A stretch of 19,808 nt of DNA, from the IMG/VR virus record IMGVR_UViG_2617270952_000001. The stretch is one strand, 5' to 3'. The DNA comes from a virus (lineage: Duplodnaviria; Heunggongvirae; Uroviricota; Caudoviricetes). A program made the position numbers and the translations under genes. Shown here piece after piece: positions 2,342-19,808 of the stretch. The notes under the pieces are model-generated. The model was not told the origin of the DNA and did no database searches. It saw only the letters and a list, made by a program, of their open reading frames with translations. Position 1 is the first letter of the stretch. Each line of letters starts with the position of its first letter.

Positions 2342-2521
2342 ATGAAAAACGCATTGCAGTTTTTGTTTGTTGCGTTCTGGTTGTTCGCATCATGTATGCC
2401 CATCATCTTCACAGCAAGGTATATGGAAAAAGTTGATGTTTTGATATTAATATTTGGATATATAAATGCCCTTTTTTTAGGGGTGTTCATGGCGGTCATG
2501 TGCATTGAATACTGGCGGTAA
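2342..2521 (+). CDS. small membrane protein, 59 aa, two predicted transmembrane helices
   Basis: AGGAGG at 2332-2337, 4 nt before the ATG. Product MKNALQFLFVAFWLFASCMPIIFTARYMEKVDVLILIFGYINALFLGVFMAVMCIEYWR has two hydrophobic stretches of about 20 aa. Confidence 0.5.
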   Translation: MKNALQFLFVAFWLFASCMPIIFTARYMEKVDVLILIFGYINALFLGVFMAVMCIEYWR

Positions 2522-2779
2522 ATACAGCGAACTCCATTGGTTTAGTTGGATATTTACTGTGCTGGACAAAAACGGTTTGCGGGGAAATCTTAGTTAAGTA
2601 GAATGACTGCGGGTGCTTGAGGCTATCTGCCTCGGGCATGGACACCAACGGCAGATAGAGAAAAGCCCCAGTTAACATTACGCGTCCTGCAAGACGCTTA
2701 ACATTAATCTGAGGCCAATTTCATGCTAGACACATGTAGGTTAGCCTCTTACGTGCCGAAAGGCACGGAGAAGCAGGCT

Positions 2780-4420
2780 ATTGTTAACACCAAGCTGTAA
2801 TGTCCCCTTTGAACCATTCTAAAATGTCCCCAGACAATTCTCTGGGGGATTTTTCATGATCAAAGAGACTGTTACGATGAGTCATAAGGAACTCCACCGA
2901 CTTCAGATTATTCAGGAACAAGCTGCGGCACGCATTGGCATTTCTATTCGGCAGGTTAAACGTCTGGTGCAACGGTATAGAAATGAAGGGCCTTCTGGTC
3001 TGGTTTCCCACCGACGTGGAAAGCGTCCTAATAATTCCTTTTCTACTGAATTCAGAGCAACAGTAATTTCACTCCTCAAAGGCCGTTACGCTGATTTTGG
3101 ACCTACGTTTGCGTGCGAAAAATTGCGCGAGATACACGGTTTATCTTTATCCGTTGAAACTCTCAGAAAGTGGATGATAGAAGAGGGGTTATGGCGTGAA
3201 CGCCGTCGTAAAATTGCCCGTATATATCAACGCCGCATGCGACGACCATCTTACGGTGAACTGATCCAGATTGATGGCTCACCTCATGACTGGTTTGAAA
3301 ATCGAGGCCCCAGATGTACACTGATCGTTTTCATTGATGATGCCACCAGTGCGTTGATGGCGTTGCGTTTTGTGCCTGCTGAAACAACCCGGGCTTACAT
3401 GGAAACCCTCCGGGGTTACCTTAATGATCATGGCGTACCGCTCGCTCTCTACTCTGATAGACACAGTATATTCAGGGTAAATAACCCAGAGCGGGAAGGT
3501 GAGCTGACCCAGTTCACTCGTGCGATAAAGACACTGGGCATCGAGCCAATCCATGCCAACAGCCCGCAGGCAAAAGGGCGGGTAGAGCGCGCCAATCAGA
3601 CACTACAGGACAGGCTGGTCAAAGAAATGCGGCTTCAGAATATCAGTGATATTGAAACAGCAAATGCATGGTTGCCGACCTTTATTGAAGCCTATAACAA
3701 CCGGTTCGCTACGTCGCCTCGTACTACTGATAATGCTCATCTTGATGTGCACCATTCTGAAGAGGAACTGGGTTATATCTTCAGCCTACAGGCGAAGCGC
3801 GTTCTGTCTAAAAATCTCACTTTCCAGTACAAAAGCAGTGCGTTTCAGGTACGCAGTGAGGGCCGGGGATATCGACTTAGGCATTCGGTTGTTACTGTAT
3901 GCGAGAACTTTGACGGTGAAATTAACGTTCTGTATGACGGGAAAGCGCTGGGCTGGGAAAAGTATGTTGATGGCCCGGAGCCTATACCACTGGATGATGA
4001 AAAGAGTGTCCATGAACGAGTGGATAATGCCCGTATTGATTTACGCTCAAAATACTATGTTAAACCTAAAGCTGACCATCCCTGGCTTACGCGCCGAACG
4101 CAAAGTCATCAGCAAGTTAAGCCCCCGAAGTTACCTAAAAAGAAGCCTGATCCCGATAAAAAAGATTGAAACCAAGATCGATTCGGTTGAGTGCATATCC
4201 ATTCATAGGGTAGATTCTTAAGTCGCGTTTCTGGTGTTCATTTTCGGGTGGTTTGTTACTTGTTTTACCGGGGATATGCCAGAAACGCGCTGAGTCAGTC
4301 TGGGCGGTGCGCGTAATGAGGCGTTATGGTAAATAGCCTATGCTAATGTCCGCTAAGAGCAAGAAGCGGAAGTTGGCAGTTTTGTGGACTGTCCCCACAA
4401 AAGTGACTACAGAAATAGTT
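2780..4420 (+). mobile_element. putative insertion sequence carrying the DDE transposase; termini not resolved
   Basis: Transposase ORF flanked by short repeated motifs (AATGTCCCC at 2799-2807 and 2823-2831; TAATGTCC at 4344-4351; TGTCCCC at 4390-4396). I could not find clean terminal inverted repeats, so the boundaries are approximate. Confidence 0.3.
2856..4169 (+). CDS. DDE transposase with retroviral-integrase-type (rve) catalytic core and N-terminal helix-turn-helix; IS481/ISNCY-like single-ORF transposase
   Basis: 437-aa ORF. Catalytic-core signature IQIDGS ... LYSDRHS ... KGRVERANQTLQD (D, D, E with K/R), N-terminal HTH (IGISIRQVKRLVQRY), basic C-terminal tail. Confidence 0.85.
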   Translation: MIKETVTMSHKELHRLQIIQEQAAARIGISIRQVKRLVQRYRNEGPSGLVSHRRGKRPNNSFSTEFRATVISLLKGRYADFGPTFACEKLREIHGLSLSVETLRKWMIEEGLWRERRRKIARIYQRRMRRPSYGELIQIDGSPHDWFENRGPRCTLIVFIDDATSALMALRFVPAETTRAYMETLRGYLNDHGVPLALYSDRHSIFRVNNPEREGELTQFTRAIKTLGIEPIHANSPQAKGRVERANQTLQDRLVKEMRLQNISDIETANAWLPTFIEAYNNRFATSPRTTDNAHLDVHHSEEELGYIFSLQAKRVLSKNLTFQYKSSAFQVRSEGRGYRLRHSVVTVCENFDGEINVLYDGKALGWEKYVDGPEPIPLDDEKSVHERVDNARIDLRSKYYVKPKADHPWLTRRTQSHQQVKPPKLPKKKPDPDKKD

Positions 4421-5470: not shown

Positions 5471-5710
5471 ATGGGTAGCATTAACCTGCGTATTGACGAT
5501 GAACTTAAAGCGCGTTCTTACGCCGCGCTTGAAAAAATGGGTGTAACTCCTTCTGAAGCGCTTCGTCTCATGCTCGAGTATATCGCTGACAATGAACGCT
5601 TGCCGTTCAAACAGACACTCCTGAGTGATGAAGATGCTGAACTTGTGGAGATAGTGAAAGAACGGCTTCGTAATCCTAAGCCAGTACGTGTGACGCTGGA
5701 TGAACTCTGA
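5471..5710 (+). CDS. relB: RelB antitoxin
   Basis: 79-aa product MGSINLRIDDELKARSYAALEKMGVTPSEALRLMLEYIADNERLPF... matches RelB; stop overlaps the relE start (TGATG). Confidence 0.95.
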   Translation: MGSINLRIDDELKARSYAALEKMGVTPSEALRLMLEYIADNERLPFKQTLLSDEDAELVEIVKERLRNPKPVRVTLDEL

Positions 5711-5997
5711 TGGCGTATTTTCTGGATTTTGACGAGCGGGCACTAAAGGAATGGCGAAAGCTGGGCTCGACGGTACGTGAACAGTTGAAAAAGAAGCTGG
5801 TTGAAGTACTTGAGTCACCCCGGATTGAAGCAAACAAGCTCCGTGGTATGCCTGATTGTTACAAGATTAAGCTCCGGTCTTCAGGCTATCGCCTTGTATA
5901 CCAGGTTATAGACGAGAAAGTTGTCGTTTTCGTGATTTCTGTTGGGAAAAGAGAACGCTCGGAAGTATATAGCGAGGCGGTCAAACGCATTCTCTGA
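5710..5997 (+). CDS. relE: RelE toxin (ribosome-dependent mRNA endonuclease)
   Basis: 95-aa product MAYFLDFDERALKEWRKLGSTVREQLKKKLVEVLESPRIEANKLRGMPDCYKIKLRSSGYRLVYQV... matches RelE. Confidence 0.95.
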   Translation: MAYFLDFDERALKEWRKLGSTVREQLKKKLVEVLESPRIEANKLRGMPDCYKIKLRSSGYRLVYQVIDEKVVVFVISVGKRERSEVYSEAVKRIL

Positions 5998-6068: not shown

Positions 6069-6224
6069 ATGAAGCAGCAAAAGGCGATGTTAATCGCCCT
6101 GATCGTCATCTGTTTAACCGTCATAGTGACGGCACTGGTAACGAGGAAAGACCTCTGCGAGGTACGAATCCGAACCGGCCAGACGGAGGTCGCTGTCTTC
6201 ACAGCTTACGAACCTGAGGAGTAA
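6069..6224 (+). CDS. hokD: Hok-family membrane toxin (HokD/RelF), 51 aa
   Basis: ATG at 6069 gives MKQQKAMLIALIVICLTVIVTALVTRKDLCEVRIRTGQTEVAVFTAYEPEE*, the Hok family signature. Below the 60-aa cutoff of the supplied ORF track. Confidence 0.9.
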   Translation: MKQQKAMLIALIVICLTVIVTALVTRKDLCEVRIRTGQTEVAVFTAYEPEE

Positions 6225-6440: not shown

Positions 6441-6692
6441 ATGATGAACATCGAAGAACTGCGTAAAATTTTTTGTGAAGATGGCCTCTATGCTGTGTGC
6501 GTTGAAAATGGAAATCTTGTTAGTCATTACCGCATTATGTGTTTGCGAAAGAATGGGGCTGCGTTAATTAATTTTGTGGATGCTCGGGTCACGGACGGAT
6601 TTATCTTGCGCGAAGGTGAGTTTGTCACTTCATTACAGGCATTGAAAGAGATCGGAATAAAAGCTGGCTTTTCTGCTTTTTCAGGAGAATAA
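6441..6692 (+). CDS. rem: Rem (Qin prophage small protein)
   Basis: 83-aa product MMNIEELRKIFCEDGLYAVCVENGNLVSHYRIMCLRKNGAALINFVDARV...; position between hokD and the DUF968 gene as in K-12 Qin. Confidence 0.85.
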   Translation: MMNIEELRKIFCEDGLYAVCVENGNLVSHYRIMCLRKNGAALINFVDARVTDGFILREGEFVTSLQALKEIGIKAGFSAFSGE

Positions 6693-6758: not shown

Positions 6759-7158
6759 ATGGCACGCAACGCAAAATATTACAATTCTGATAATTCGCCC
6801 GTTCTTGCCTGCACGCACGGGCGGTATTCTCACGCATTCAAGTCTGAATGGTTCCAGCACCCTCCATGCACTGCAGAACAGGCCGAATGGCTGATTCATT
6901 CTTACCGCAGGCGCGGGTTCGAGGTTAAGAAAGCTCTCAGTCTCGACTATGCCAGCCGACGATCCGCATCATCTGATTGGTCACGGGCAGGGCGGAATGG
7001 GAACAAAAGCACATGATCTCTTTGTGTTGCCTTTGTGCAGAAAGCATCACAACGAGCTGCATACGGATACAGTGGCATTTGAAGATAAGTATGGCTCCCA
7101 ACTGGAGCTGATATTTCGTTTTATCGATCGCGCGCTGGCAATTGGCGTACTGGCGTAA
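6759..7158 (+). pseudogene. ydfU: DUF968/YdfU-like gene remnant with HNH-like motif, split over two frames by a +1 frameshift
   Basis: ORF 6759-7016 and ORF 6949-7158 overlap in different frames. The second carries HHLIGHGQGGMGTKAHD...CRKHHNELHTD. Total span about 400 nt, which I believe is much shorter than intact ydfU. Confidence 0.45.
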
Positions 7159-7171
7159 GTGGAGAACGAGC

Positions 7172-7924
7172 ATGAACCTTGAAGCCTTACCAAAATATTA
7201 CTCCCCAAAATCTCCAAAATTGAGCGATGACGCTCCAGCGACAGGCACCGGTTGTTTAACAATTACGGATGTAATGGCAGCGCAGGGGATGGTGCAGTCG
7301 AAAGCACCACTTGGGTTGGCCTTATTTCTGGCAAAAGTTGGTGTTCAGGACCCTCAGTTTGCGATTGAAGGCCTGCTAAATTACGCGATGGCACTGGATA
7401 ACCCGACATTGAACAAATTGAGTGAAGAAATCCGGTTACAGATTATTCCTTACCTCGTGAGTTTTGCCTTTGCTGATTACTCCAGGTCTGCGGCAAGTAA
7501 GGCTCGCTGTGAGCATTGTTCAGGTACGGGATTTTATAATGTATTGCGCGAAGTGGTGAAACACTACAGACGCGGGGAATCTGTAATCAAGGAAGAATGG
7601 GTGAAGGAACTATGTCAGCATTGCCATGGTAAGGGCGAAGCCAGCACAGCGTGCAGAGGGTGTAAGGGTAAAGGGATTGTTCTGGATGAAAAAAGAACCC
7701 GGTTTCATGGCGTACCGGTATATAAGATTTGTGGGCGTTGTAATGGAAACCGGTTTAGTCGTTTACCGACCACGCTGGCACGACGTCATGTCCAGAAGCT
7801 GGTACCAGACCTGACCGATTATCAGTGGTATAAGGGGTATGCGGACGTCATTGGTAAACTGGTAACAAAGTGCTGGCAGGAAGAAGCATACGCGGAAGCG
7901 CAATTGAGGAAGGTGACGAGATAA
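7172..7924 (+). CDS. quuQ: Q-family late-gene antiterminator
   Basis: 250-aa product from MNLEALPKYY... with the cysteine cluster CEHCSGTGF...CQHCHGKGE...CRGCKGKG...CGRCNGN (zinc-binding motifs of phage-82-type Q). GGAGA lies 7 nt before the ATG at 7172. Confidence 0.9.
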   Translation: MNLEALPKYYSPKSPKLSDDAPATGTGCLTITDVMAAQGMVQSKAPLGLALFLAKVGVQDPQFAIEGLLNYAMALDNPTLNKLSEEIRLQIIPYLVSFAFADYSRSAASKARCEHCSGTGFYNVLREVVKHYRRGESVIKEEWVKELCQHCHGKGEASTACRGCKGKGIVLDEKRTRFHGVPVYKICGRCNGNRFSRLPTTLARRHVQKLVPDLTDYQWYKGYADVIGKLVTKCWQEEAYAEAQLRKVTR

Positions 7925-7955
7925 ATGATTTTTGCTGAAGATGGCGACATGATGT

Positions 7956-7984
7956 TTGCATTTTTCAAAAAATATGGATAAAAT
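7956..7984 (+). promoter_or_regulatory. putative late promoter (pR'-like) downstream of Q
   Basis: TTGCAT-N17-TAAAAT, about 30 nt after the quuQ stop and about 45 nt before a strong terminator; this layout is typical of lambdoid pR'/qut/tR'. Confidence 0.45.
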
Positions 7985-8030
7985 TTTTTCAACGATGGGC
8001 TTTGTATACCCGACGTTAAGAAAAAGTAGA

Positions 8031-8060
8031 AAACCCGCTGATGAGCGGGTTTTGTGCTTT
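8031..8060 (+). terminator. rho-independent terminator (candidate tR') after the late promoter
   Basis: CCCGCT-GATG-AGCGGG hairpin followed by TTTTGTGCTTT. Confidence 0.6.
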
Positions 8061-8345
8061 AAATGGGGCAATGGTAATGTTGAATCTCATCCCGGGACTC
8101 ATGTCTGTTAACTTATTATTTAGCTGGTGACTTGGTTATTTGCCTGATGTTTAAAATGTTTTCTTCCAGTACAATGTCCCTAAACACAATGAGTCTGCTT
8201 ATTATATTATTAGCAGAGCTATTACGGCCAAAGTACAGCATAAGCTTTTAAAGCCAATCAACCAGTCATCAAGACAGACGGGGTTATTCATAAAAACTCT
8301 CCATGTGTGATCCGATGGGGCCTGAAATTAAAGCTTTAATATAGC

Positions 8346-8558
8346 TCATGAAAGGTAAACATTGGCAGCTGAAGGGCCACGCAGACCATTTATCCGGCAA
8401 AATTCCACGCGTAATCCGGTGGTAATTTCTTCTGCATCGCGGAGATTGAGCGCTGAAACATGAAGCTGGACATCGATACGACCATCGGATGGGGTGATAA
8501 GACCCTTGCCGCTTTTGCCGTCAAAGGTTTTGACAATTCCTGTCATTTTACGGGACAA
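8346..8558 (-). CDS. cspF: cold-shock protein CspF (CspA family)
   Basis: 70-aa product [70 protein letters not shown]. Confidence 0.9.
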
Positions 8559-8858
8559 AAAAATTCCTTAATACTGATAACTTGGCGCACTATACACACG
8601 TTCCTGAAGAAAGCTATAGTTTTTTGATGGGGTTGAAGATGGCTGGATGTCTAAAATAAACATTGCTTCATATGTTCAACTATGCGTTAATGATTGCGTC
8701 GGTTTGAAGAACAGACGATATACGAAGTAGTTTACTAAAGCAGTTCTCATTTCAGGTGTTATTCACTTATTCCTTCTTTGAGTCTCTCCAATTAAGTACG
8801 AAGTCGTTTCTGTTATGCAAACCATTTATGCCGAAAGGCTCAAGTTAAGGAATGTAGA

Positions 8859-9074
8859 ATGTCAAATAAAATGACTGGTTTAGTAAAATGGTTTAACGCT
8901 GATAAAGGTTTCGGCTTTATTTCTCCTGTTGATGGTAGTAAAGATGTGTTTGTGCATTTTTCTGCGATTCAGAATGATAATTATCGAACCTTATTTGAAG
9001 GTCAAAAGGTTACCTTCTCTATAGAGAGTGGTGCTAAAGGTCCTGCAGCAGCAAATGTCATCATTACTGATTAA
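8859..9074 (+). CDS. cspB: cold-shock protein CspB (CspA family)
   Basis: 71-aa product [71 protein letters not shown]; about 300-nt leader typical of cold-shock genes. Confidence 0.95.
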
Positions 9075-9355
9075 AATTCATCGCTCGTCTGTATACGATA
9101 ACGAAGAAGGCTGATGCCTGAGTAGAGATACGGACAGAGTAGTGAATATTGGATCTCTTTAATAAAAAGTAAGGAGGTCCAATACATGAAACAATGGCTA
9201 GCATATTTGGCAAAATCTTAATCAGGAAAAGTATGCTAACCATTGTGGTGAAGTGCAGGTTTGCTGCATGAATAGTTTTACAGCAGAAGCTAACTGCTGG
9301 CATGGCAAAACAAAGTGCGTAAGTGGATGACTCCCACAAAAAGCACCACAATCTC

Positions 9356-9379
9356 AAACCCGCTCAGGCGGGTTTTTTA
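9356..9379 (+). terminator. rho-independent terminator downstream of cspB (possibly bidirectional)
   Basis: AAACCCGC-TCAG-GCGGG followed by TTTTTT; an A-run precedes it, so it may also terminate the convergent minus-strand gene. Confidence 0.6.
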
Positions 9380-9437
9380 TTATCTGCTTTAAATATATTA
9401 TTAAAATATAAAAAATACTTGTTACTAATAAAATCAA

Positions 9438-9608
9438 TCAGGCTACAGCTTTAAGATTTGTCTGGAATACTTTGTTGCAATGAGGGCAGATCAAAAGGGC
9501 ACCTTTTTGTACTCTTGAAAAACTGTGTTCTGACTCTTGGGTGCAGTTTGGGCAGGAACATTTAACGAGATAATTACGGCGTGATTTTGAGTTTTTACGT
9601 TCTGACAT
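9438..9608 (-). CDS. ynfU: small zinc-ribbon protein (56 aa; two Cys pairs CSCPNC and CPHC)
   Basis: ATG-initiated product MSERKNSKSRRNYLVKCSCPNCTQESEHSFSRVQKGALLICPHCNKVFQTNLKAVA. Gene name is from uncertain memory of a Qin small zinc-binding protein. Confidence 0.5.
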   Translation of the reverse strand: MSERKNSKSRRNYLVKCSCPNCTQESEHSFSRVQKGALLICPHCNKVFQTNLKAVA

Positions 9609-9827
9609 AGGCTTTTCCTGTATAAATGGCCGTATACAGTACACTAAATATGAAAACATTTCTCGTATTATTATTTTATATATGACTTTCTTTCAAAATA
9701 ATTACCCACATTTTTAATGTGTATGTTTTTTTAGCGCCGTTGAGAACAACGTGTGCTGTCAAAACTACCCCGTAGACTCCGATCTTTTCAAACATATTGC
9801 ACCATCCGTGTACATCGGGGTGAGGAT

Positions 9828-10043
9828 ATGAAATCAATGGATAAGTTAACAACAGGTGTTGCCTATGGCACATCGGCGGGTAATGCTGGTTTCTGGGCAT
9901 TGCAGTTACTCGATAAAGTAACTCCGTCACAGTGGGCTGCAATCGGTGTGCTGGGTAGCCTGGTTTTTGGCCTGCTGACGTATCTGACAAATCTTTATTT
10001 CAAGATTAAAGAAGACAGGCGTAAGGCTGCGAGAGGAGAGTAA
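9828..10043 (+). CDS. essQ: class II holin, phage-21 S-type, with dual start (Met1 and Met4)
   Basis: 71-aa product [71 protein letters not shown]; GGTGAGGA precedes the ATG. Confidence 0.9.
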
Positions 10044-10047
10044 TCCA

Positions 10048-10355
10048 ATGACTCAAGACTATGAACTGGTTGTGAAAGGAGTCCGTAATTTTGAGAATAA
10101 AGTTACGGTAACTGTAGCCTTACAGGACAAAGAACGCTTTGACGGTGAAATTTTTGACCTGGATGTCGCCATGGACCGTGTTGAAGGAGCTGCGCTGGAG
10201 TTTTATGAGGCAGCAGCCAGAAGGAGCGTCCGGCAAGTCTTCCTGGAAGTAGCAGAAAAATTGTCAGAAAAAGTTGAGTCTTATCTGCAGCATCAGTACT
10301 CCTTTAAGATTGAAAATCCTGCCAATAAGCACGAGCGTCCTCATCATAAATATCT

Positions 10356-10359
<4 letters not shown>
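10048..10359 (+). CDS. ydfR: YdfR (small protein between holin and endolysin)
   Basis: 103-aa ORF in the position and length of K-12 ydfR; stop overlaps the endolysin start (ATGA). Confidence 0.8.
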
Positions 10360-11383
<1,024 letters not shown>

Positions 11384-11745
11384 GGTAATATTAAATCGGA
11401 ACATTTACATCGCGGAATGTAAAATTTAAATAAAAAGGACTCTTCCATGAGCCAAAATTCCTGAAATCTTAAGGGTAAGATAAAAGGTCTTAATCAGAAT
11501 GACACGTTTTATTAATAAATAAAGCTATTCTTTCATTGCTGTGTTTTTCTTTACAAAAGTAATCCTTGCTATGGGTGGTTAATCATGCGTTAATGGTGTT
11601 CTGGTTTGTTACAAATTTATCTGAAGCAGTCATTGTTATAATTTTATTATTTGTACCTCTTGAGATTTCCTTGTTGGTTTTTCTCTCTGATATTTTTTTT
11701 CGGACCATTCTGCCCAAGGGCTAATTTCTTCAAAAGGTAATAATT

Positions 11746-11958
11746 ATGTCTAACAAAATGACTGGTTTAGTGAAATGGTTTAACCCTGAAAAAGGTTTTG
11801 GTTTCATCACGCCGAAAGATGGCAGCAAAGATGTGTTTGTCCATTTCTCAGCAATTCAGAGCAACGATTTCAAAACATTAACTGAGAATCAGGAAGTTGA
11901 ATTTGGTATTGAGAACGGACCTAAAGGTCCTGCCGCTGTTCATGTAGTGGCGCTTTGA
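11746..11958 (+). CDS. cspI: cold-shock protein CspI (CspA family)
   Basis: 70-aa product [70 protein letters not shown]; long AT-rich leader. Confidence 0.95.
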
Positions 11959-12162
11959 GGTAGACAATATTACAAACCATATTCACTTTAGATGCCCGTG
12001 TTGTCATGGTTCCCAGTATAGAACATCATCTTTTGATGTTTCTGACATGAATCCTTTCGGGGCAAAATGTATCTTTTGTAAATCAATGATGATTACATTT
12101 GATAATATTTCACAATACTTAAATGCCAGCCGTCTGTCGTTGGATTTAAAAAAGTGAAAATG

Positions 12163-12186
12163 AAGGCTCCTTCGGGAGCTTTTTTG
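12163..12186 (+). terminator. rho-independent terminator
   Basis: GGCTCC-TTCG-GGAGC hairpin followed by TTTTTTG. Confidence 0.5.
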
Positions 12187-12229
12187 CTTGGTGTCTATTC
12201 GATGGATACTCACATACTACGGTAACATC

Positions 12230-12460
12230 ATGAAAAAAATCATAGTTTTTTTTAACTCTGAACCAGCAGTGGTAGTGCCAGCGATGACTGGAGTTAACAC
12301 CATCATGCGTGAATATCCAAATGGCGAAAAAACACACCTTACTGTAATGGCCGCAGGGTTTCCATCTCTGACCGGAGATCATAAAGTCATTTATGTAGCC
12401 GCGGATCGACATGTTACTTCAGAAGAAATTCTGGAAGCAGCAATAAGGCTCTTGAGTTGA
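12230..12460 (+). CDS. hypothetical protein, 76 aa, no family assigned
   Basis: ATG-initiated ORF MKKIIVFFNSEPAVVVPAMTGVNTIMREYPNGEKTHLTVMAAGFPSLTGDHKVIYVAADRHVTSEEILEAAIRLLS with protein-like composition; weak ribosome-binding site; sits just after a terminator. Confidence 0.3.
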   Translation: MKKIIVFFNSEPAVVVPAMTGVNTIMREYPNGEKTHLTVMAAGFPSLTGDHKVIYVAADRHVTSEEILEAAIRLLS

Positions 12461-12628
12461 TTTGATGCTATTGCATTGATAATTCAGGAAAATTCTCTTT
12501 GTCTGTTTGTGTAAAATTTAGACTATCGTATGTTGATTATTGCGATGTTTCATCTTATCTTTTACACGTTTGCACCATATAATCGACTTACTGTGTAACT
12601 GGAAAGTCATAACAGACTAAAAGAGGAA

Positions 12629-12805
12629 ATGATGAATATTGAAAACTTAAAAACAAAAGCAGAAGCAGATATTTCTGAATATATAACAAAAAAAATTATT
12701 GAACTTAAGAAAAAGACCGGGAAAGAAGTTACCAGTATTCAGTTTACCGCACGGGAAAAAATGACGGGTCTTGAAAGCTATGATGTCAAGATTAATTTAA
12801 TCTGA
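12629..12805 (+). CDS. gnsB: GnsA/GnsB-family small protein
   Basis: 58-codon product MMNIENLKTKAEADISEYITKKIIELKKKTGKEVTSIQFTAREKMTGLESYDVKINLI; AAGAGGAAA precedes the ATG. Below the supplied ORF track cutoff. Confidence 0.85.
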   Translation: MMNIENLKTKAEADISEYITKKIIELKKKTGKEVTSIQFTAREKMTGLESYDVKINLI

Positions 12806-12956
12806 TGTATTCAATAATAAAATTTATCCATAAACCTCGTTTTTACGGGGTTTTGTTATATTTGAATGGTTCCGAATATCTAAATCACAATTGTTGATGG
12901 TTTTTATTAAACCAATGCAGTCCGGCTCAGGAGTGAGAGAAGCCGGACGTTATGGT

Positions 12957-13367
12957 TTAGCGTGGTAAGATCTGTGTAGTTTTCTGGATGCTTTCAGTAA
13001 ATAGTAATGAATTATCAAAGGTATAGTAATATCTTTTTTGTTCGTGGATATTTGTAACCCACCGAAAAACTCCTGCTTTAGCAAGGTTTCTTCTGTATTC
13101 CTGAAATGTGATCTCTCTGGATTTCAGCTTATTAGAGGTCGTTTCTATAAGATGCCTATCCTTTGAAAATTTGACAGACACAATGTTTTTTAGGCCCTTT
13201 AATAACACTGTATTATCATTTTTTAATACAATATGAACATTCTCTGTGGCTAAATAGTAAATGTAATGTGAGACATTGTGACGTTTTAGCTCAGAATAAA
13301 ACCATTGATAGTTTAAATCGTTTCGAACTTTATCAAATATTTGTTTAAAAATGACTACCTGATCCAT
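12957..13367 (-). CDS. ydfO: YdfO (DUF1398-type prophage protein)
   Basis: 136-aa product [60 protein letters not shown]... matches my recollection of YdfO and a lambda right-arm ORF. Confidence 0.85.
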
Positions 13368-13424
13368 AGATAAACCTTCCATGTGATATGAGGGGGCGTA
13401 GTCTGCACGATTATCTAAATTGCT

Positions 13425-13658
13425 TCAATCTGGTCTGACCTGTTTTCTGAGCAATTCAGTAATGTCACTCTTTTCTTTGTTTGCTTCAGAAGAAACTCTT
13501 TTTTCTGAGCACAGTCTCCGGCGGCAGGCTTCAATGACCCAGGCTGAGAAATTCCCGGACCCTTTTTGCTCAAGAGCGATGTTAATTTGTTCAATCATTT
13601 GGTTAGGAAAGCGGATGTTGCGGGTTGTTGTTCTGCGGGTTCTGTTCTTCGTTGACAT
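13425..13658 (-). CDS. ynfO: YnfO, small basic protein (possible ribbon-helix-helix fold)
   Basis: 77-aa product MSTKNRTRRTTTRNIRFPNQMIEQINIALEQKGSGNFSAWVIEACRRRL...; matches an ORF I recall near the lambda right end. Confidence 0.8.
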   Translation of the reverse strand: MSTKNRTRRTTTRNIRFPNQMIEQINIALEQKGSGNFSAWVIEACRRRLCSEKRVSSEANKEKSDITELLRKQVRPD

Positions 13659-13824
13659 GAGGTTGCCCCGTATTCAGTGTCGCTGATTTGTATTGTCTGA
13701 AGTTGTTTTTACGTTAAGTTGATGCAGATCAATTAATACGATACCTGCGTCATAATTGATTATTTGACGTGGTTTGATGGCCTCCACGCACGTTGTGATA
13801 TGTAGATGATAATCATTATCACTT

Positions 13825-14040
13825 TACGGGTCCTTTCCGGTGATCCGACAGGTTACGGGGCGGCGACCTCGCGGGTTTTCGCTATTTATGAAAATTTTCC
13901 GGTTTAAGGTGTTTCCGTTCTTCTTCGTCGTAACTTAATGTTTTTATTTAAAATACCCCCTGAAAAGAAAGGAAACGACAGGTGCTGAAAGCGGGCTTTT
14001 TGGCCTTTGTCGTTTCCTTTCTCTGTTTTTGTCCGTGGAA
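13825..14040. other. cos site (cosQ, cosN with the 12-nt cohesive-end sequence GGGCGGCGACCT at 13858-13869, cosB) of a lambda-like packaging system
   Basis: Sequence ...GATCCGACAGGTTACG|GGGCGGCGACCTCGCGGGTTTTCGCTATTTATGAAAATTTTCCGG... is nearly identical to the lambda genome ends as I recall them, directly upstream of Nu1. Confidence 0.85.
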
Positions 14041-14046
14041 TGAACA

Positions 14047-14592
14047 ATGGAAGTCAACAAAAAGCAGCTGGCTGACATTTTCGGTGCGAGTATCCGTACC
14101 ATTCAGAACTGGCAGGAACAGGGAATGCCCGTTCTGCGAGGCGGTGGCAAGGGTAATGAGGTGCTTTATGATTCTGCCGCCGTCATAAAATGGTATGCCG
14201 AAAGGGATGCTGAAATTGAGAACGAAAAGCTGCGCCGGGAAGTTGAAGAACTGCGGCAGGCCAGCGAGACAGATCTCCAGCCAGGGACTATTGAGTACGA
14301 ACGCCATCGACTTACGCGTGCGCAGGCCGACGCACAGGAGCTGAAAAATGCCAGAGACTCCGCTGAAGTGGTGGAAACCGCATTCTGTACTTTCGTGCTG
14401 TCGCGGATCGCAGGTGAAATTGCCAGTATTCTCGACGGGATCCCCCTGTCGGTGCAGCGGCGTTTTCCGGAACTGGAAAACCGACATGTTGATTTCCTGA
14501 AACGGGATATCATCAAAGCCATGAACAAAGCAGCCGCGCTGGATGAACTGATACCGGGGTTGCTGAGTGAATATATCGAACAGTCAGGTTAA
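14047..14592 (+). CDS. nohA: terminase small subunit (lambda Nu1 homologue)
   Basis: 181-aa product MEVNKKQLADIFGASIRTIQNWQEQGMPVLRGGGKGNEVLYDSAAVIKWYAERDAEIENEKLRREVEELRQ..., essentially lambda Nu1 with a winged-HTH N-terminus. Confidence 0.95.
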   Translation: MEVNKKQLADIFGASIRTIQNWQEQGMPVLRGGGKGNEVLYDSAAVIKWYAERDAEIENEKLRREVEELRQASETDLQPGTIEYERHRLTRAQADAQELKNARDSAEVVETAFCTFVLSRIAGEIASILDGIPLSVQRRFPELENRHVDFLKRDIIKAMNKAAALDELIPGLLSEYIEQSG

Positions 14593-15703
14593 CAGGCTGC
14601 GGCATTTTGTCCGCGCCGGGCTTCGCTCACTGTTCAGGCCGGAGCCACAGACCGCCGTTGAATGGGCGGATGCCAATTACTATCTCCCGAAAGAATCCGC
14701 ATACCAGGAAGGGCGCTGGGAAACACTGCCCTTTCAGCGGGCCATCATGAATGCGATGGGCAGCGACTACATCCGCGAGGTGAATGTGGTGAAGTCTGCC
14801 CGTGTTGGTTATTCCAAAATGCTGTTGGGTGTTTATGCCTACTTCATAGAGCATAAGCAGCGCAACACACTTATCTGGTTGCCGACGGATGGTGATGCCG
14901 AGAACTTTATGAAAACCCACGTTGAGCCGACCATCCGTGATATTCCTTCGCTGCTGGCGCTGGCCCCGTGGTATGGCAAAAAGCACCGGGATAACACGCT
15001 CACCATGAAGCGTTTCACCAATGGGCGTGGCTTCTGGTGCCTGGGCGGTAAAGCGGCAAAAAACTACCGTGAAAAGTCAGTGGATGTGGCGGGGTATGAT
15101 GAACTTGCTGCCTTTGATGAGGATATTGAACAGGAAGGCTCTCCGACGTTCCTGGGCGATAAGCGTATTGAAGGCTCTGTCTGGCCAAAATCCATCCGTG
15201 GCTCCACGCCCAAAGTGAGAGGCACCTGCCAGATTGAGCGTGCAGCCAGTGAATCCCCGCATTTTATGCGTTTTCATGTTGCCTGCCCGCACTGCGGGAA
15301 GGAGCAGTACCTTAAATTTGGCGACAAAGAGACGCCGTTTGGCCTCAAATGGATGCCGGATGATCCCTCCAGCGTGTTTTATCTCTGTGAGCATAATGCC
15401 TGCGTCATCCGTCAGCAGGAGCTGGACTTTACTGATGCCCGTTATATCTGCGAAAAGACCGGGATCTGGACCCGTGATGGCATTCTCTGGTTTTCGTCAT
15501 CCGGTGAAGAGATTGAACCGCCTGACAGTGTGACCTTTCACATCTGGACGGCGTACAGCCCGTTCACCACCTGGGTGCAGATTGTCAAAGACTGGATGAA
15601 GACGAAAGGGGATACTCCGTGTTTGAGCAGTCACTGTTGCGGTATATCGCTGCCGGGCTGGGTGTCTCGTATGAGCAGCTTTCCCGGAATTACGCCCAGA
15701 TGA
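14567..15703 (+). pseudogene. terminase large subunit (lambda A homologue), N-terminal 350 codons only, joined out of frame to portal-gene sequence
   Basis: MNISNSQVNRLRHFVRAGLRSLFRPEPQTAVEWADANYYLPKE... follows lambda gpA through ...VQIVKDWMKTKGDT (to about 15616). The next 28 codons are portal-gene DNA read in the wrong frame, ending at the stop at 15701-15703. Confidence 0.85.
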
Positions 15704-16164
15704 GCTACTCCACGGCACGGGCCAGCGCGAACGAGTCGTGGGCGCACTTTATGGGGCGGCGAAAATTCGTCGCATCCCGTCAGGCGAGCCAGATGTTTCT
15801 GTGCTGGCTGGAAGAGGCCATCGTTCGCCGCGTGGTGACGTTACCTTCAAAAGCGCGCTTCAGCTTTCAGGAAGCCCGCAGCGCCTGGGGGAACTGTGAC
15901 TGGATAGGCTCCGGTCGTATGGCTATCGATGGTCTGAAAGAAGTACAGGAAGCGGTGATGCTGATAGAAGCCGGACTGAGCACCTACGAGAAAGAGTGCG
16001 CAAAACGCGGCGACGACTATCAGGAAATTTTTGCCCAGCAGGTCCGTGAAACGATGGAGCGCCGCGAAGCCGGTCTTAAACCGCCCGCCTGGGCGGCAGC
16101 GGCATTTGAATCCGGGCTGCGACAATCAACAGAGGAGGAGAAGAGTGACAGCAGAGCTGCGTAA
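15617..16164 (+). pseudogene. portal protein (lambda B homologue), C-terminal 181 codons only
   Basis: ...FEQSLLRYIAAGLGVSYEQLSRNYAQMSYSTARASANESWA...EEEKSDSRAA* matches the C-terminus of lambda gpB. No ATG or ribosome-binding site at the fragment start; the frame differs from the A fragment. Confidence 0.8.
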
Positions 16165-17464
16165 TCTCCCGCATATTGCCAGCATGGCCTTTAATGAGCC
16201 GCTGATGCTTGAACCCGCCTATGCGCGGGTTTTCTTTTGTGCGCTTGCAGGCCAGCTTGGGATCAGCCGCCTGACGGATGCAGTATCCGGCGACAGCCTG
16301 ACTGCCGGAGAGGCACCCGCGGCGCTGGCGTTATCCGGTGATGATGACGGACCACGACAGGCCCGCAGTTATCAGGTCATGAACGGCATCGCCGTGCTGC
16401 CGGTGTCCGGTACGCTGGTCAGCCGGACGCGGGCGCTGCAGCCGTATTCGGGAATGACCGGTTACAACGGCATTATCGCCCGTCTGCAACAGGCTGCCAG
16501 CGATCCGATGGTGGACGGCATTCTGCTGGATATGGACACACCGGGCGGGATGGTGGCGGGAGCATTTGACTGTGCTGACATCATCGCCCGTGTGCGAGAC
16601 ATAAAACCGGTATGGGCGCTGGCCAACGACATGAACTGCAGTGCAGGTCAGCTGCTTGCCAGCGCCGCCTCCCGGCGTCTGGTCACGCAGACCGCCCGGA
16701 CAGGCTCCATCGGCGTCATGATGGCTCACAGTAATTACGGTGCTGCGCTGGAGAAACAGGGCGTGGAAATCACGCTGATTTACAGCGGCAGCCATAAGGT
16801 GGATGGCAACCCCTACAGCCATCTACCGGATGAGGTCCGGGAAACACTGCAGTCCCGGATGGATGCAACCCGCCGGATGTTTGCACAGAAGGTGTCGGCA
16901 TATACCGGCCTGTCCGTGCAGGCTGTGCTGGATACCGAGGCTGCAGTGTACAGCGGTCAGGAGGCCATTGATGCCGGACTGGCTGATGAACTTGTGAACA
17001 GTACCGATGCGATCACCGTCATGCGTGATGCACTGGATGCACGTAAATCCCGTCTCTCAGGAGGGCGAATGACCAAAGAGACTCAATCAACAACTGTTTC
17101 AGCCACTGCTTCGCAGGCTGACGTTACTGGCGTGGTGCAAGCGACGGAGGGCGAGAACGCCAGCGCTGCGCAGCCGGACGTGAACGCGCAGATCACCGCA
17201 GCGGTTGCGGCAGAAAACAGTCGCATTATGGGGATCCTCAACTGTGAGGAGGCTCACGGACGCGAAGAACAGGCATGCGTGCTGGCCGAAACCCCCGGTA
17301 TGACCGTGGAAACGGCCCGCCGTATTCTGGCCGCAGCACCACAGAGTGCACAGGCGCGCAGTGACACTGCGCTGGATCGTCTGATGCAGGGGGCACCGGC
17401 ACCGCTGGCTGCAGGTAACCCGGCATCTGATGCCGTTAACGATTTGCTGAACACACCAGTGTAA
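16145..17464 (+). CDS. head maturation protease / minor capsid protein (lambda C homologue), GTG start
   Basis: 439-aa product from GTG at 16145 (TAELRNLPHIASMAFNEPLMLEPAYARVFFCALAGQLGIS...) matches lambda gpC; start overlaps the end of the B fragment. Confidence 0.9.
   Translation: MTAELRNLPHIASMAFNEPLMLEPAYARVFFCALAGQLGISRLTDAVSGDSLTAGEAPAALALSGDDDGPRQARSYQVMNGIAVLPVSGTLVSRTRALQPYSGMTGYNGIIARLQQAASDPMVDGILLDMDTPGGMVAGAFDCADIIARVRDIKPVWALANDMNCSAGQLLASAASRRLVTQTARTGSIGVMMAHSNYGAALEKQGVEITLIYSGSHKVDGNPYSHLPDEVRETLQSRMDATRRMFAQKVSAYTGLSVQAVLDTEAAVYSGQEAIDAGLADELVNSTDAITVMRDALDARKSRLSGGRMTKETQSTTVSATASQADVTGVVQATEGENASAAQPDVNAQITAAVAAENSRIMGILNCEEAHGREEQACVLAETPGMTVETARRILAAAPQSAQARSDTALDRLMQGAPAPLAAGNPASDAVNDLLNTPV
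16859..17464 (+). CDS. scaffolding protein Nu3 homologue, nested in frame in the 3' part of C
   Basis: In-frame internal ATG at 16859 (MDATRRMFAQKV...) at the position corresponding to the lambda nu3 start as I recall it. Confidence 0.55.
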   Translation: MDATRRMFAQKVSAYTGLSVQAVLDTEAAVYSGQEAIDAGLADELVNSTDAITVMRDALDARKSRLSGGRMTKETQSTTVSATASQADVTGVVQATEGENASAAQPDVNAQITAAVAAENSRIMGILNCEEAHGREEQACVLAETPGMTVETARRILAAAPQSAQARSDTALDRLMQGAPAPLAAGNPASDAVNDLLNTPV

Positions 17465-17473
17465 GGGATGTTT

Positions 17474-17806
17474 ATGACGAGCAAAGAAACCTTTACCCAT
17501 TACCAGCCGCTGGGCAACAGTGACCCGGCTCATACCGCAACCGCGCCCGGCGGATTGAGTGCGAAAGCGCCTGCAATGACCCCGCTGATGCCGGACACCT
17601 CCACCCGTAAGCTGGTTGCGTGGGATGGCACCACCGACGGTGCTGCCGTTGGCATTCTTGCGGTTGCTGCTGACCAGACCAGCACCACACTGACGTTCTA
17701 CAAGTCCGGCACGTTCCGTTATGAGGATGTGCTCTGGCCGGAGGCTGCCAGCGACGAGACGAAAAAACGGACCGCGTTTGCCGGAACGGCAATCAGCATC
17801 GTTTAA
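17474..17806 (+). CDS. head decoration protein (lambda D homologue)
   Basis: 110-aa product [68 protein letters not shown]...; AAGGGA 6 nt before the ATG. Confidence 0.9.
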
Positions 17807-17826
17807 CCTGACCCTTCATCACTAAA

Positions 17827-17848
17827 GGCCGCCTGTGCGGCTTTTTTT
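17827..17848 (+). terminator. terminator-like hairpin with T7 run between D and E
   Basis: GGCCGCC-TGT-GCGGC followed by TTTTTTT, 14 nt before the E start codon; may attenuate or structure the D-E junction rather than fully terminate. Confidence 0.4.
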
Positions 17849-17861
17849 ACGGGATTTTTTT

Positions 17862-19715
17862 ATGTCGATGTACACAACCGCCCAGCTGCTGGCGGCAAAT
17901 GAGCAGAAATTTAAGTTTGATCCGCTGTTTCTGCGTCTCTTTTTCCGTGAGAGCTATCCCTTCACTACGGAGAAAGTCTATCTCTCACAAATTCCGGGAC
18001 TGGTAAACATGGCGCTGTACGTTTCGCCGATTGTTTCCGGTGAGGTTATCCGTTCCCGTGGCGGCTCCACCTCTGAATTTACGCCGGGATATGTCAAACC
18101 CAAGCATGAGGTGAATCCGCAGATGACCCTGCGTCGCCTGCCGGATGAAGATCCGCAGAATCTGGCGGACCCGGCTTACCGCCGCCGTCGCATCATCATG
18201 CAGAACATGCGTGACGAAGAGCTGGCCATTGCTCAGGTCGAAGAGATGCAGGCAGTTTCTGCCGTGCTCAAGGGCAAATACACCATGACCGGTGAAGCCT
18301 TCGATCCGGTTGAGGTGGATACCGGAGCTTTGTGGAAGCGTACAGCCGTCGGATTAACGAATTTCGCCTGGATCAACACATCCGGCGATACATATGATAT
18401 TTACGTTGAGATTGGCAATTATGCGACGAGTGTAAATATCCATTGGGATTGTACTACAAATGCGTCAGTTTCTATTTATACCTCGCCAACATATTCAGCG
18501 AGTAAGCCTTCCAGCGTTACCGGTGGTGTTGTTTATACGATGTATAGCTCACATCAGAAACCTACACCATCAGATATTGGAGCGCTGCCAACGACTGGAG
18601 GGACTATTTCAGGTCCGTTGTCTGTTACTGATGGGATCACCGGGGCACTGAAGGGGAACGCCGATACCGCGACGAAACTTGCGGCAGCCCCAAAAATTAA
18701 CGGTGTTAAGTTTGATGGCTCGGCGGATATTAACCTCACGCCGGAAAATATTGGTGCATTTGCCCGACGTTCGACGGGGGCTTATGCGGATTCGGATGGA
18801 GCCGTTCCCTGGAATGCCGAATCAGGCGCTTACAATGTCACCCGCTCTGGCAACAGCTATATTCTGGTTAACTTCTATACCGGAGTCGGAAGTTGCCGGA
18901 CCTTGCAGATGAAGGCACATTACAGAAATGGAGGTCTGTTCTACCGTTCCTCAAGAGATGGCTATGGTTTTGAGGAAGACTGGGCAGAAGTTTATACCTC
19001 GAAAAATCTTCCACCAGAAAGCTACCCAGTCGGCGCACCAATCCCGTGGCCATCAGATACCGTTCCGTCTGGTTATGCCCTGATGCAGGGGCAGACTTTT
19101 GACAAATCTGCTTACCCGAAACTTGCAGCCGCTTATCCGTCAGGTGTGATCCCTGATATGCGTGGCTGGACGATTAAGGGCAAACCTGCCAGTGGTCGGG
19201 CCGTATTGTCTCAGGAACAGGACGGCATTAAATCGCACACCCACAGCGCCAGCGTATCCAGTACGGATTTGGGGACGAAAAACACATCGTCGTTTGATTA
19301 CGGAACCAAATCCACGAATAACACCGGGGCGCATACCCATAGTATTAGCGGGACTGCAAATAGTGCCGGTGCGCACCAACACAAGAGTTCCGGTGCATTT
19401 GGTGGCACGAACACGAGCATTTTCCCTAATGGTTATACCGCGATTTCAAATCTAAGCGCGGGGATTATGAGCACAACAAGCGGTAGTGGCCAGACTCGTA
19501 ATGCAGGGAAGACATCATCAGATGGTGCTCATACCCACTCGCTGTCCGGCACTGCTGCAAGCGCAGGCGCACACGCACATACTGTCGGTATTGGTGCTCA
19601 TACGCACTCCGTTGCGATTGGTTCACATGGACATACCATCACCGTTAACGCTGCTGGTAACGCGGAAAACACCGTCAAAAACATCGCATTTAACTATATT
19701 GTGAGGCTTGCGTAA
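17862..19715 (+). CDS. chimeric ORF: major capsid protein E N-terminal 153 codons fused in frame to a side-tail-fibre (Stf) C-terminal region of 464 codons
   Basis: [34 protein letters not shown]... follows lambda gpE to ...[10 protein letters not shown] (about 18320). The frame then continues into tail-fibre-like sequence with GAHTHS-type His repeats ending ...[11 protein letters not shown]. Confidence 0.85.
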
Positions 19716-19808
19716 TGGCATTCAGAATGAGTGAACAACCACGGACCATAAAAATTTATAATCTGCTGGCCGGAACTAATGAATTTATTGGTGAAGGTGA
19801 CGCATATA
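19715..19808 (+). CDS. tail fibre assembly protein (Tfa), N-terminal 31 codons (3' end outside window)
   Basis: ATG overlapping the stf stop (TAATG) gives [31 protein letters not shown]..., the N-terminus of lambda-type Tfa. Confidence 0.8.

Follow-up and report, generated by a model that had tools for sequence, protein, structure and literature searches.

The locus raises the question of whether a lambda-type cos site and a complete small terminase subunit gene, standing next to a truncated large subunit gene (A'), provide a route by which a defective prophage could have its relBE, hok and csp cargo mobilised, as an earlier note on this DNA had proposed. The answer reached here is that the cos-Nu1-A' segment is probably a decaying one, and that the cargo would realistically move by recombination and not by packaging from this cos.

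The window, that is, the whole stretch of DNA analysed, comprises a complete contig of 19.8 kb (19,808 nucleotides; JNMB01000053.1) from the draft Escherichia coli assembly GCA_000700205.1. It is bounded by an IS600 copy at the left end and finishes on the right at position 19808. Its gene order agrees with that of Qin in strain K-12 and of an intact Qin-type prophage in strain B379. Synteny with the late region of K-12 Qin, together with the cargo (relBE-hokD, cspF/B/I, essQ-rrrQ-rzpQ, gnsB, ydfO, ynfO and nohA), identifies the window on sequence grounds as a Qin-type lambdoid cryptic prophage in mid-decay. K-12 Qin shares its type and order (flxA-relBE-hokD-rem-ydfU-ydfT-cspF-cspB-essQ-rrrQ-rzpQ-cspI-gnsB-ydfO-ynfO-cos-nohA) and is 99.9% identical to B379 across 11.5 kb, its own break lying just after the A start, inside the Nu1/A overlap (lambda bp 719), with nohA fused to stfQ. 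Compared with K-12 Qin the present allele is less decayed on its right side and more decayed on its left, where the immunity region and part of ydfU are deleted.

Table 1. Coordinates of the cargo, cos, terminase and head or tail features in the window.
Feature	Position	Strand	Remarks
relBE	5471-5997		upstream of 13858
hokD	6069-6224		upstream of 13858
cspF, cspB, cspI	about 8346-11958		upstream of 13858
cosQ	13828-13834	+	GGGTCCT, packaging termination element; sequence and cosN spacing identical to lambda 48473-48479
cosN	13856-13871	+	16 bp identical to lambda
cosB	13907-14026	+	5 differences from lambda
R3 core	13910-13921		GTTTCC/GGAAAC motif
IHF site I1 region	about 13930-13960		within cosB
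R2 core, inverted	13966-13977		GTTTCC/GGAAAC motif
R1 core	14011-14022		GTTTCC/GGAAAC motif
Nu1 / nohA	14047-14592	+	full length, 181 aa; lambda, 2H10 and Pfam comparison
A', truncated large terminase	14567-15703	+	gpA residues 1-350 plus 28 out-of-frame residues
Deletion junction J2	15610-15615		GGATAC; strict microhomology TAC at 15613-15615
Portal (gpB) C-terminal fragment	15616-16164	+	about residues 352-533; other frame than A'
Head gene C	16145-17464	+	S49 protease/scaffold, apparently intact
Head gene D	17474-17806	+	decoration, apparently intact
Major capsid E::side tail fibre C-terminal part	17835-19715	+	in-frame fusion
Second deletion junction J3	18317-18322		GGATAC

The cos site was compared with lambda base by base. 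Positions 13658-13909 correspond to lambda 48303-48502 followed by 1-52 with every base identical, including all 200 bp 5' of the nick, and lambda 48473-48479 is what we take, from the Feiss laboratory literature, to be cosQ. The cohesive-end 12-mer, GGGCGGCGACCT, occurs once in the window, at 13858-13869, and the top strand would be nicked between 13857 and 13858; lambda bp 1, with which the cohesive end begins, falls at 13858, which agrees with the packaging start given in the earlier note. The agreement of these features with the stated coordinates goes far beyond what chance would give. The description there of cosQ, cosN and cosB as complete and lambda-like also holds, cosQ (7 bp; PMC4669245) and cosN (16 bp as defined in PMC9026076) being identical to lambda, and R3, I1, the inverted R2 and R1 following in lambda order and spacing between cosN and Nu1. 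The changes in cosB are C53T, A73G, T102C, deletion of A137 and C151T. All five co-occur in phages 2H10 and phiSTEC1575-Stx2k, and reading them as inactivating mutations was rejected as the default because the entire allele, with an identical Nu1, is found in phage 2H10. C53T changes the opening base of the R3 core, and its occurrence in isolated phages suggests that it is tolerated.

The small subunit is likewise complete, as had been claimed. It shares 179 of 181 residues with lambda Nu1 (substitutions A75T and L132I), is 100% identical to phage 2H10 Nu1 and B379 nohA, and matches the whole Pfam Phage_Nu1 profile (PF07471; positions 1-164 of 164, 336 bits, E 4e-101), from the N-terminal DNA-binding domain to the C-terminal gpA-binding end. 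Residues 1-74, including the DNA-binding domain, are identical to lambda. With these residues and cosQ/cosN as in lambda and the cosB/Nu1 pair as in 2H10, recognition of this cos by a terminase of lambda specificity is plausible.

The large subunit is a composite of 378 aa in which gpA-derived DNA runs to 15615 and the 28-residue tail is read from portal DNA. Residues 1-350 differ from lambda gpA by D185E, E245K and T263M, and they keep the Pfam GpA_ATPase domain (PF05876; residues 47-285, 174 bits) with Walker A and B motifs (KSARVGYS at residue 76, VAGYDE at 174). No GpA_nuclease match (PF20454) was found in A', whereas lambda gpA scored alongside gave 251 bits over residues 322-600. Residues 351-641 are deleted, and with them the C-terminal region assigned to portal docking (PMC9026076). 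In the structure of gpA the ATPase domain spans 29-366 and the nuclease 373-623 (PMC10810279), and the gpA part of A' stops about 16 residues before the end of the former. The loss of the C-terminal half and of the nuclease, stated in the earlier note, is thus borne out; the ATPase had been wrongly included in that loss, as its Pfam domain sits in the N-terminal half that was kept.

The deletion at J2 comprises 2,129 bp (lambda 1760-3888), equivalent to A codons 351-641, W and portal codons 1 to about 351, and at the TAC microhomology it puts A codon 350 next to about codon 352 of the portal gene. The portal remnant matches Pfam Phage_portal_2 at profile positions 308-354, and C and D are collinear with B379. 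In the capsid fusion the E part amounts to about the first 153 codons, with its ATG at 17862, and the product has Pfam matches to Phage_cap_E (14-164) and Collar (400-447). Besides the gpA nuclease and portal-docking region, gpW and portal residues 1 to about 351, the prophage is without FI and FII, every tail gene from Z to J and, in the major capsid protein, the C-terminal half. The view that this prophage cannot package itself is correct and over-determined, each of these losses bearing on it, and judged by its gene content the prophage should be unable to yield particles.

Whether the truncation is real deserves attention, as the source is a draft assembly of short contigs and the J2 junction was found in none of 5,426 complete E. 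coli genomes, nor in the GTDB species-representative genomes. It is present, however, in the IMG/VR contig L023 and in the Logan contigs L013 and L014 (exact-protein look-up and IMG/VR), the same 378-aa product and junction having been assembled independently from two sequencing runs besides this contig. The E'::stf junction J3 is likewise common to independent assemblies (L013, L023 and L028), and assemblers do not join sequences on microhomologies of 3-10 bp; an assembly artefact is accordingly given an almost negligible probability.

The deletion seems to be young. Positions 6948-15615, to the left of the junction, are 99.977% identical to B379 (2 mismatches in 8,668 bp), and in this relative A, W and the portal gene are all complete. 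The simplest reading is that the J2 deletion is recent and that cos and Nu1 may be intact by youth and not by maintenance. Recency accounts for the intactness, and selection would also be compatible with it, Nu1 homologues persisting in many cryptic prophages.

The site of the break in A is not particular to this locus. The breakpoint GGGGATACG^GG (the caret marks the break) was found again in eight distinct rearrangements in other genomes, the sequence at the site being GGATACGGG, and these junctions very probably mark a recurrent break hot spot in lambda-like prophages. As the break site is recurrent, the deletion that truncated A probably did not fall at a random place. This bears on the proposal that cos, Nu1 and gpA(1-350) are selected as a decoy against lambdoid phages, where Nu1 and an ATPase-only gpA would co-assemble with the terminase of an invader and poison its nuclease or motor ring while cos titrates terminase. 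Several independent deletions do yield the same cos-Nu1-A(1-349/350) product, the N-terminal region and complete Pfam ATPase domain are kept in A', a Q antiterminator homologue upstream of the segment is intact, and PICIs are known to interfere by hijacking the terminase small subunit (PMC6739421). The breakpoints, however, agree within 1-3 bp, which indicates a mutational hot spot and not selection at a domain boundary; the same-site event in EM20-18-50 breaks the integrity of the ATPase domain; A' itself lacks the last residues of the structural ATPase domain and carries a nonsense tail; and the truncations of K-12 Qin and DLP12 lie far earlier in A. Selection as a decoy is considered improbable, and recent decay at a hot spot is preferred.

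The breakpoints in A and E both resemble the left half of cosN. Break sites of the form GGNTAYG^GG are like its left, sequence-sensitive half (GGTTACG^GGG), have the same orientation and lie downstream of cos. A candidate mechanism is that terminase nicks such pseudo-cosN half-sites on the top strand, after which the 3' end ...TACG may prime at microhomology further downstream, producing the recurrent A and E breaks; this proposal is tentative and rather doubtful. Strict end-joining, starting with a double-strand break where the nick falls, was rejected because at J1 the microhomology belongs to the side of the putative nick that was lost, and J1 is unexplained by the nicking model. TA(C/T) was present at the joins in 8 of the 8 first junctions examined, a pattern that is explained for the most part by the hot-spot ends themselves, and a general TA(C/T) rule for all prophage deletions fails in BLR(DE3), which joins at CTG, and in WI1, with four junctions of little or no microhomology and no TA. 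Other candidates were set aside: type IIS enzymes of GTATCC specificity for the GGATAC motif (their cut would fall to the wrong side, and in E the site reads GGATAT), the gix/pix sites of DNA invertases (crossover 13 bp off), secondary sites of lambda Int (partner not conserved), transposases of the IS200/IS605 type or REP-associated (hairpins absent), and IS ends, XerCD and gyrase as makers of the GGATAC breaks. For Rpn nucleases the paper checked gives no cleavage motif, and searches of the literature on deletion hot spots or pseudo-cos sites yielded nothing relevant.

The proposed mobilisation of the cargo depends on the direction of packaging. After the cut, terminase frees the upstream end and keeps the end containing cosB, which is translocated (PMC7229814, PMC4669245), and lambda polarity here (cosN, cosB, Nu1) leads in the direction opposite to relBE, hokD and the csp genes. 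A helper phage of lambda type might in principle initiate at the chromosomal cos and package the adjacent cargo, since cos and Nu1 look functional and both lambda and phi80 transfer plasmids and PICIs bearing cos (PMC6092414). The cargo lies on the upstream side of cosN, so this cos is not a plausible packaging route for it. Only one cos is present, whereas cos phages need a second one to end packaging, and uncut protruding DNA prevents tail joining (PMC6687093, PMC8575938); lambda is considered to carry out neither generalised nor lateral transduction (PMC6687093, PMC8575938). Packaging from cos to cos fares no better, as no integrase or replication genes with which to build a concatemer were found among the called genes and Pfam hits of the 19.8-kb contig, which has also lost the immunity region; the rest of the genome may hold an integrase, a replication module or a second cos. 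Helper packaging of the cargo is thus very improbable, and the mobilising route suggested by the earlier note is not supported.

Growth of a lambda-specificity phage in the cell could bring its terminase onto cosB, with a nick in cosN at 13857/13858. Terminase would remain bound on the Nu1 side, and any translocation would proceed to the right, past the remnants of the head genes and the tail-fibre genes, and enter the chromosome; lacking a second cos, it would not end in an infectious particle. The freed upstream end (ynfO, ydfO, gnsB, cspI and the lysis genes) would be free to recombine, and the relBE/hok/csp side could cross by homologous recombination into the lambdoid phage that infects the cell, the route taken in the lambda-qin and lambda-qsr' hybrids. 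By analogy this recombination is the realistic and supported route for the cargo. Lambda acquires markers from DLP12, Qin and Rac at frequencies that have been measured; for DLP12, where the homology spans cos, the frequency exceeds the others about 100-fold and every second junction adjoins cos, and cos cuts in both lambda and DLP12 may stimulate the exchange, as the authors of that study suggest (PMC3945230).

The closest parallel in K-12 is DLP12, which also has a cos of lambda type, a full-length Nu1 homologue (nohD) and a 5' fragment of A (pseudogene aaaD), and which recombines with infecting lambda most often beside cos (PMC3945230). Its A fragment keeps about 102 codons compared with 350 here and runs into tail-fibre DNA across a deletion with TAT microhomology; the prophage and its neighbouring cargo are different, and remnants of portal, C and D follow only in the present locus. 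The locus has the cosQ and cosN of lambda, the cosB allele and Nu1 of 2H10 and a gpA 1-350 three substitutions away from lambda, but it lacks the gpA nuclease domain and portal-docking end, W, and functional portal, capsid and tail genes. Another known case is that of the 'doc' particles of the lambda literature of the 1970s, where packaging started from an unexcised prophage at a single in-situ cos and was polarised via Nu1 and A into host DNA. That case is a complete induced prophage, unlike this remnant, and the comparison serves as a lead only. The PICI EcCICFT073 and P4 are similar in being chromosomal elements with cosQ and cosN compatible with a helper (PMC6092414, PMC9026076). PICI transfer, however, depends on excision and on replication to concatemers with cos one unit apart (PMC6092414), and PICIs carry an Rpp that redirects the helper small subunit; an own integrase, a replication module and an Rpp beside cos were not found within this contig, and lambda cosB, absent from PICI cos, is present in this one.

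In E. coli K-12, cryptic prophages of the lambdoid kind in which A is broken while cos is usable and a Nu1 homologue persists were recognised decades ago, and experiments have already measured how their late regions are exchanged with lambdoid phages that infect the cell. Genes upstream of a single chromosomal cos are poorly served by it as a vehicle, and relBE, hok and csp should not be credited with a transduction route at this locus. If the terminase mechanism is true, lambdoid prophages would be wrecking their own head genes at predictable places, and if the deletions begin at a few cosN-like sites, their domestication would be partly programmed or self-inflicted and not a random erosion.

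The window is a Qin-type lambdoid prophage, as identified by comparison with annotated genomes, and corresponds in its entirety to JNMB01000053.1 (19,808 bp) of the draft E. coli assembly GCA_000700205.1. The nearest complete genome is that of strain B379, 99.977% identical across window 6948-15615, where the same prophage type is intact with complete A, W and portal genes and the head and tail set. Relatedness steps down at the deletion junction in A, from 99.98% to B379 over 6948-15615 to 98.2% over 15616-18321, a stretch 98.8% identical to strain PCP06021. By sequence, the head-gene remnant seems to have a different lineage of origin than the late/lysis region and, given this step, a recombination event may have accompanied or predated the A-portal deletion. 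The left end of the contig holds the 3' part of an IS600 copy (IS3 family), which adjoins an exonuclease fragment, and the identical junction (100%) is present in several complete genomes, e.g. FORC 064. A sok antitoxin RNA match about 3.3 kb from hokD, adjoining an ISNCY/IS1202-like transposase remnant, suggests a second hok/sok-type locus or the remnant of one. For both cspB and cspI, leader and coding sequence match the cspA thermoregulator, so that these prophage genes are predicted to keep the cold-shock mRNA structure.

Coordinates of the features described (window positions unless lambda or a comparison contig, L015-L033, is named; slashes mark breaks)
Feature	Position	Detail
Genes, first half		flxA, ydfV, relB, relE, hokD, rem, ydfU', ydfT (Q antiterminator), cspF, cspB
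Genes, middle (after cspB, before cos)		essQ, ydfR, rrrQ, rzpQ, cspI, gnsB, ydfO, ynfO
Genes, last part		cos, nohA (Nu1), A', portal fragment, C, D, E'::tail-fibre fusion
IS600 3' end	1-214	
sok match	2611-2782 (+)	Rfam, 104 bits
Transposase remnant ORF	2856-4169	
hokD	6069-6224	
cspB thermoregulator match	8698-9090 (+)	Rfam, 159 bits
cspI thermoregulator match	11600-11985 (+)	Rfam, 113 bits
cosQ	13828-13834	GGGTCCT
cosN	13856-13871	
A' frame	14567-15703	
E::side-tail-fibre ORF	17835 or 17862 to 19715	~617-626 aa, E part ~1-153
Junction 1, window		A to portal; A DNA ends at lambda 1759
Junction 2, APEC O78 group (22 genomes)	lambda 17967	A to J, GATA/ACCG
Junction 3, strain 1223		in-frame A(350)::tail-fibre fusion, GATACG/ACCG
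Junction 4, EM20-18-50	L019 3066-3075	end of inverted A segment joined to portal DNA, GTATCC microhomology
Junction 5, IMG/VR contig L024	lambda 16141	A to J
Junction 6, contigs L025-L027		A to another tail-fibre position
Junction 7, contig L032	near lambda 17799	A to J
Junction 8, contig L033		7-bp deletion at A site
A-site breaks in other contigs	L015 4908-4915; L022 2693-2701	
E-site breaks elsewhere	L029 ~5814-5837; L030 ~603-626	
EM20-18-50 inversion	L019 2932-3075	145 bp
WI1 deletions	L020 2555, 4180, 5464, 6539	
BLR(DE3) junction	L018 4027-4029	
A site with C-to-T change	L031 ~4059-4080	

Aligned with lambda, the window agrees base for base from lambda 48303 to the right end of that genome and on across lambda bp 1-52, and therefore cosQ, cosN and the spacer between them are identical to those of lambda; lambda bp 1 falls at window 13858, in agreement with the earlier note. 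Five differences from lambda were identified in cosB: C53T, at the opening base of the R3 core, A73G, T102C, C151T and the deletion of A137. All three R cores are kept in their orientation. The Nu1 gene is complete, and its product differs from that of lambda by two substitutions, neither within residues 1-74. The description of cosQ, cosN, cosB and Nu1 as complete and lambda-like is thus borne out. Among the aligned cos regions of isolated and inducible phages, the five cosB variants occur together in phage 2H10 and in phiSTEC1575-Stx2k, and the Nu1 of 2H10 is 100% identical to that of the window; judged by these identities, a phage deposited as an isolate carries this cos/Nu1 pair. By sequence, recognition of this cos by a helper terminase is plausible, and the site is probably usable.

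The A' frame comprises gpA residues 1-350 (three substitutions) and 28 out-of-frame residues from portal DNA, followed by a stop, so that the truncation of A described in the earlier note is confirmed too. Compared with B379 and lambda, 2,129 bp (lambda 1760-3888) are missing, which takes out A codons 351-641, all of W and the portal gene from codon 1 to ~351; the frame shifts after the junction because 2,129 is not divisible by three. The join lies at TAC (GGGGATAC/GGG on the A side, ACGGCTAC/TCC on the portal side, GGGGATAC/TCC as product). This junction was found in none of 5,426 complete E. coli genomes and in no species-representative genome; the identical 378-aa product was recovered from two sequencing runs, assembled independently, and the junction is also present in one IMG/VR contig. 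It is real and limited to a small lineage. Pfam places the gpA ATPase domain at residues 47-285 of A', with Walker A KSARVGYS (76) and the VAGYDE segment (174) kept, and finds no nuclease domain, while lambda gpA, scored alongside, shows both. Models of lambda gpA set the ATPase at 29-366 and the nuclease at 373-623 (PMC10810279), and the Feiss and Catalano groups describe an N-terminal ATPase and a C-terminal endonuclease (PMC4669245, PMC7229814). The proposal that the lost half carries both functions is therefore half wrong: the nuclease is gone and the ATPase domain is retained.

Through a second deletion, ~153 codons from the start of capsid gene E now read in frame into the C-terminal portion of a side tail fibre, and the rest of E, FI, FII and all tail genes are gone. 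Together with the A-W-portal deletion, this gives more grounds than the earlier note had for its correct statement that the prophage is unable to package itself. The third, at window 587-596, removed 5.8 kb with ydfD, dicB, ydfABC, dicA, dicC and ydaT-like genes (the immunity region); a 10-bp near-repeat (CTCCGGATAC and CTCCGGCTAC) marks the join, which connects the interior of a RecE-like exonuclease gene (minus strand) with that of a DUF977 gene. The fourth, at 6948-6950, is a 930-bp loss within ydfU at TAT microhomology, which leaves a 69-aa DUF968 remnant as the only gene call.

Mobilisation of the RelBE/Hok and csp cargo by a helper packaging from this cos had also been proposed. After nicking, terminase lets go of the upstream end and stays with the one that contains cosB; it is this end that docks on the portal and undergoes translocation (PMC7229814, PMC4669245, PMC9026076). 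In the window, packaging would thus run rightwards from 13858, first through Nu1 and A' and then through the head remnants and tail-fibre genes, and relBE, hokD and the csp genes are on the opposite, left-hand side. Termination requires a downstream cosQ-cosN, and without a terminal cut the protruding DNA blocks tail attachment; cos phages including lambda are considered incapable of generalised or lateral transduction (PMC6687093, PMC8575938). The position of the cargo and these rules argue against the proposal. PICIs, the cos-bearing elements that lambda transfers, excise and replicate to concatemers with cos one unit apart (PMC6092414), whereas gene calls and genome comparison identified no integrase or replication genes within the 19,808-bp contig. 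The way in which genes of cryptic lambdoid prophages are documented to move is by recombining homologously into an infecting phage, as measured for DLP12, Qin and Rac by De Paepe and colleagues; the highest rate was that of DLP12, with homology spanning cos, and half of the junctions adjoin cos. These authors suggest that cos cutting in both lambda and DLP12 may stimulate recombination, breaks at cos being stimulatory on the left side and the right side being shielded by bound terminase (PMC3945230). Given this asymmetry, a cut at 13857/13858 would aid the upstream cargo in recombination, not in packaging.

The A gene is broken at the same place elsewhere, with eight distinct junction types, drawn from E. 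coli genomes and IMG/VR contigs and including the window, within GGGGATACG (lambda 1752-1760; window 15607-15618), here called the A site. Four of the ~11 A breakpoints met without selecting for the site lie there, the others being at lambda 719, 918, 1018, 1281, 1536, ~1614 and 2372. All A-site events except the EM20-18-50 inversion keep the left (cos-Nu1) side, to within 0-2 nt; events keeping the right side were looked for and none was found. A single control position 35 bp upstream showed a divergent-A-allele boundary only and no deletion. This hot spot is very likely real. The breakpoint in E, GGTGGATATG/GG (lambda 6590-6598; window 18313-18322), is likewise used repeatedly, joined to three distinct partners. 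Decay of the head genes is common and comes about in mechanistically different ways, and other strains have A-to-portal lesions of their own: WI1 presents four head-region deletions nearly without microhomology, EM20-18-50 an inverted A segment, and the DLP12-type prophage of the E. coli B strain BLR(DE3) has A codon ~553 joined to the portal at CTG.

The A site (GGATACGGG) matches the cosN top-strand nick GGTTACG/GGG at 8 of 9 positions and the E site (GGATATGGG) at 7 of 9, and the right partner of the 587-596 deletion, GGCTACGGG (GGCTACG/GG), matches the nick region at 8 of 9. In one contig (L031) with A otherwise intact, a C-to-T change turns the A site into GGATATGGG, the 9-mer of the E site. 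On both strands of the 33-kb B379 locus, GG-N-TA-Y-GGG occurs only four times, at cosN and the three break sites and in the same orientation, the pattern being derived from the break sites themselves and hence partly circular; canonical 16-bp cosN contains only its YG/GG part. Since the sequence sensitivity of cosN resides in its left half and the gpA nuclease is not highly specific for sequence when unanchored by cosB (PMC4669245, PMC9026076), nicking of pseudo cosN half-sites by terminase is conceivable. Terminase would nick the top strand at such a half-site and the 3' end ...TACG would prime at a downstream microhomology, which would explain why the left side is always kept to 0-2 nt and why partners carry TA(C/T). 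The geometry of the 587-596 junction does not readily fit simple nick-priming, several other prophage deletions have no cosN-like motif, and no paper describing such cosN-like break sites was found in the literature. A terminase mechanism behind the hot spot is considered rather unlikely.

The arrangement of the packaging region, in which cos is followed by a complete Nu1 homologue and a 5' A stump, is annotated in K-12 DLP12 as nohD-aaaD; in K-12 Qin nohA is fused to stfQ, whereas in the window it is followed by A', the portal fragment, C and D. The window allele is an intermediate decay stage of the same kind of element, and it belongs, as an ordinary case, to a class that is well known; the recurrent cosN-like breakpoint is the sole part of the locus worth follow-up.
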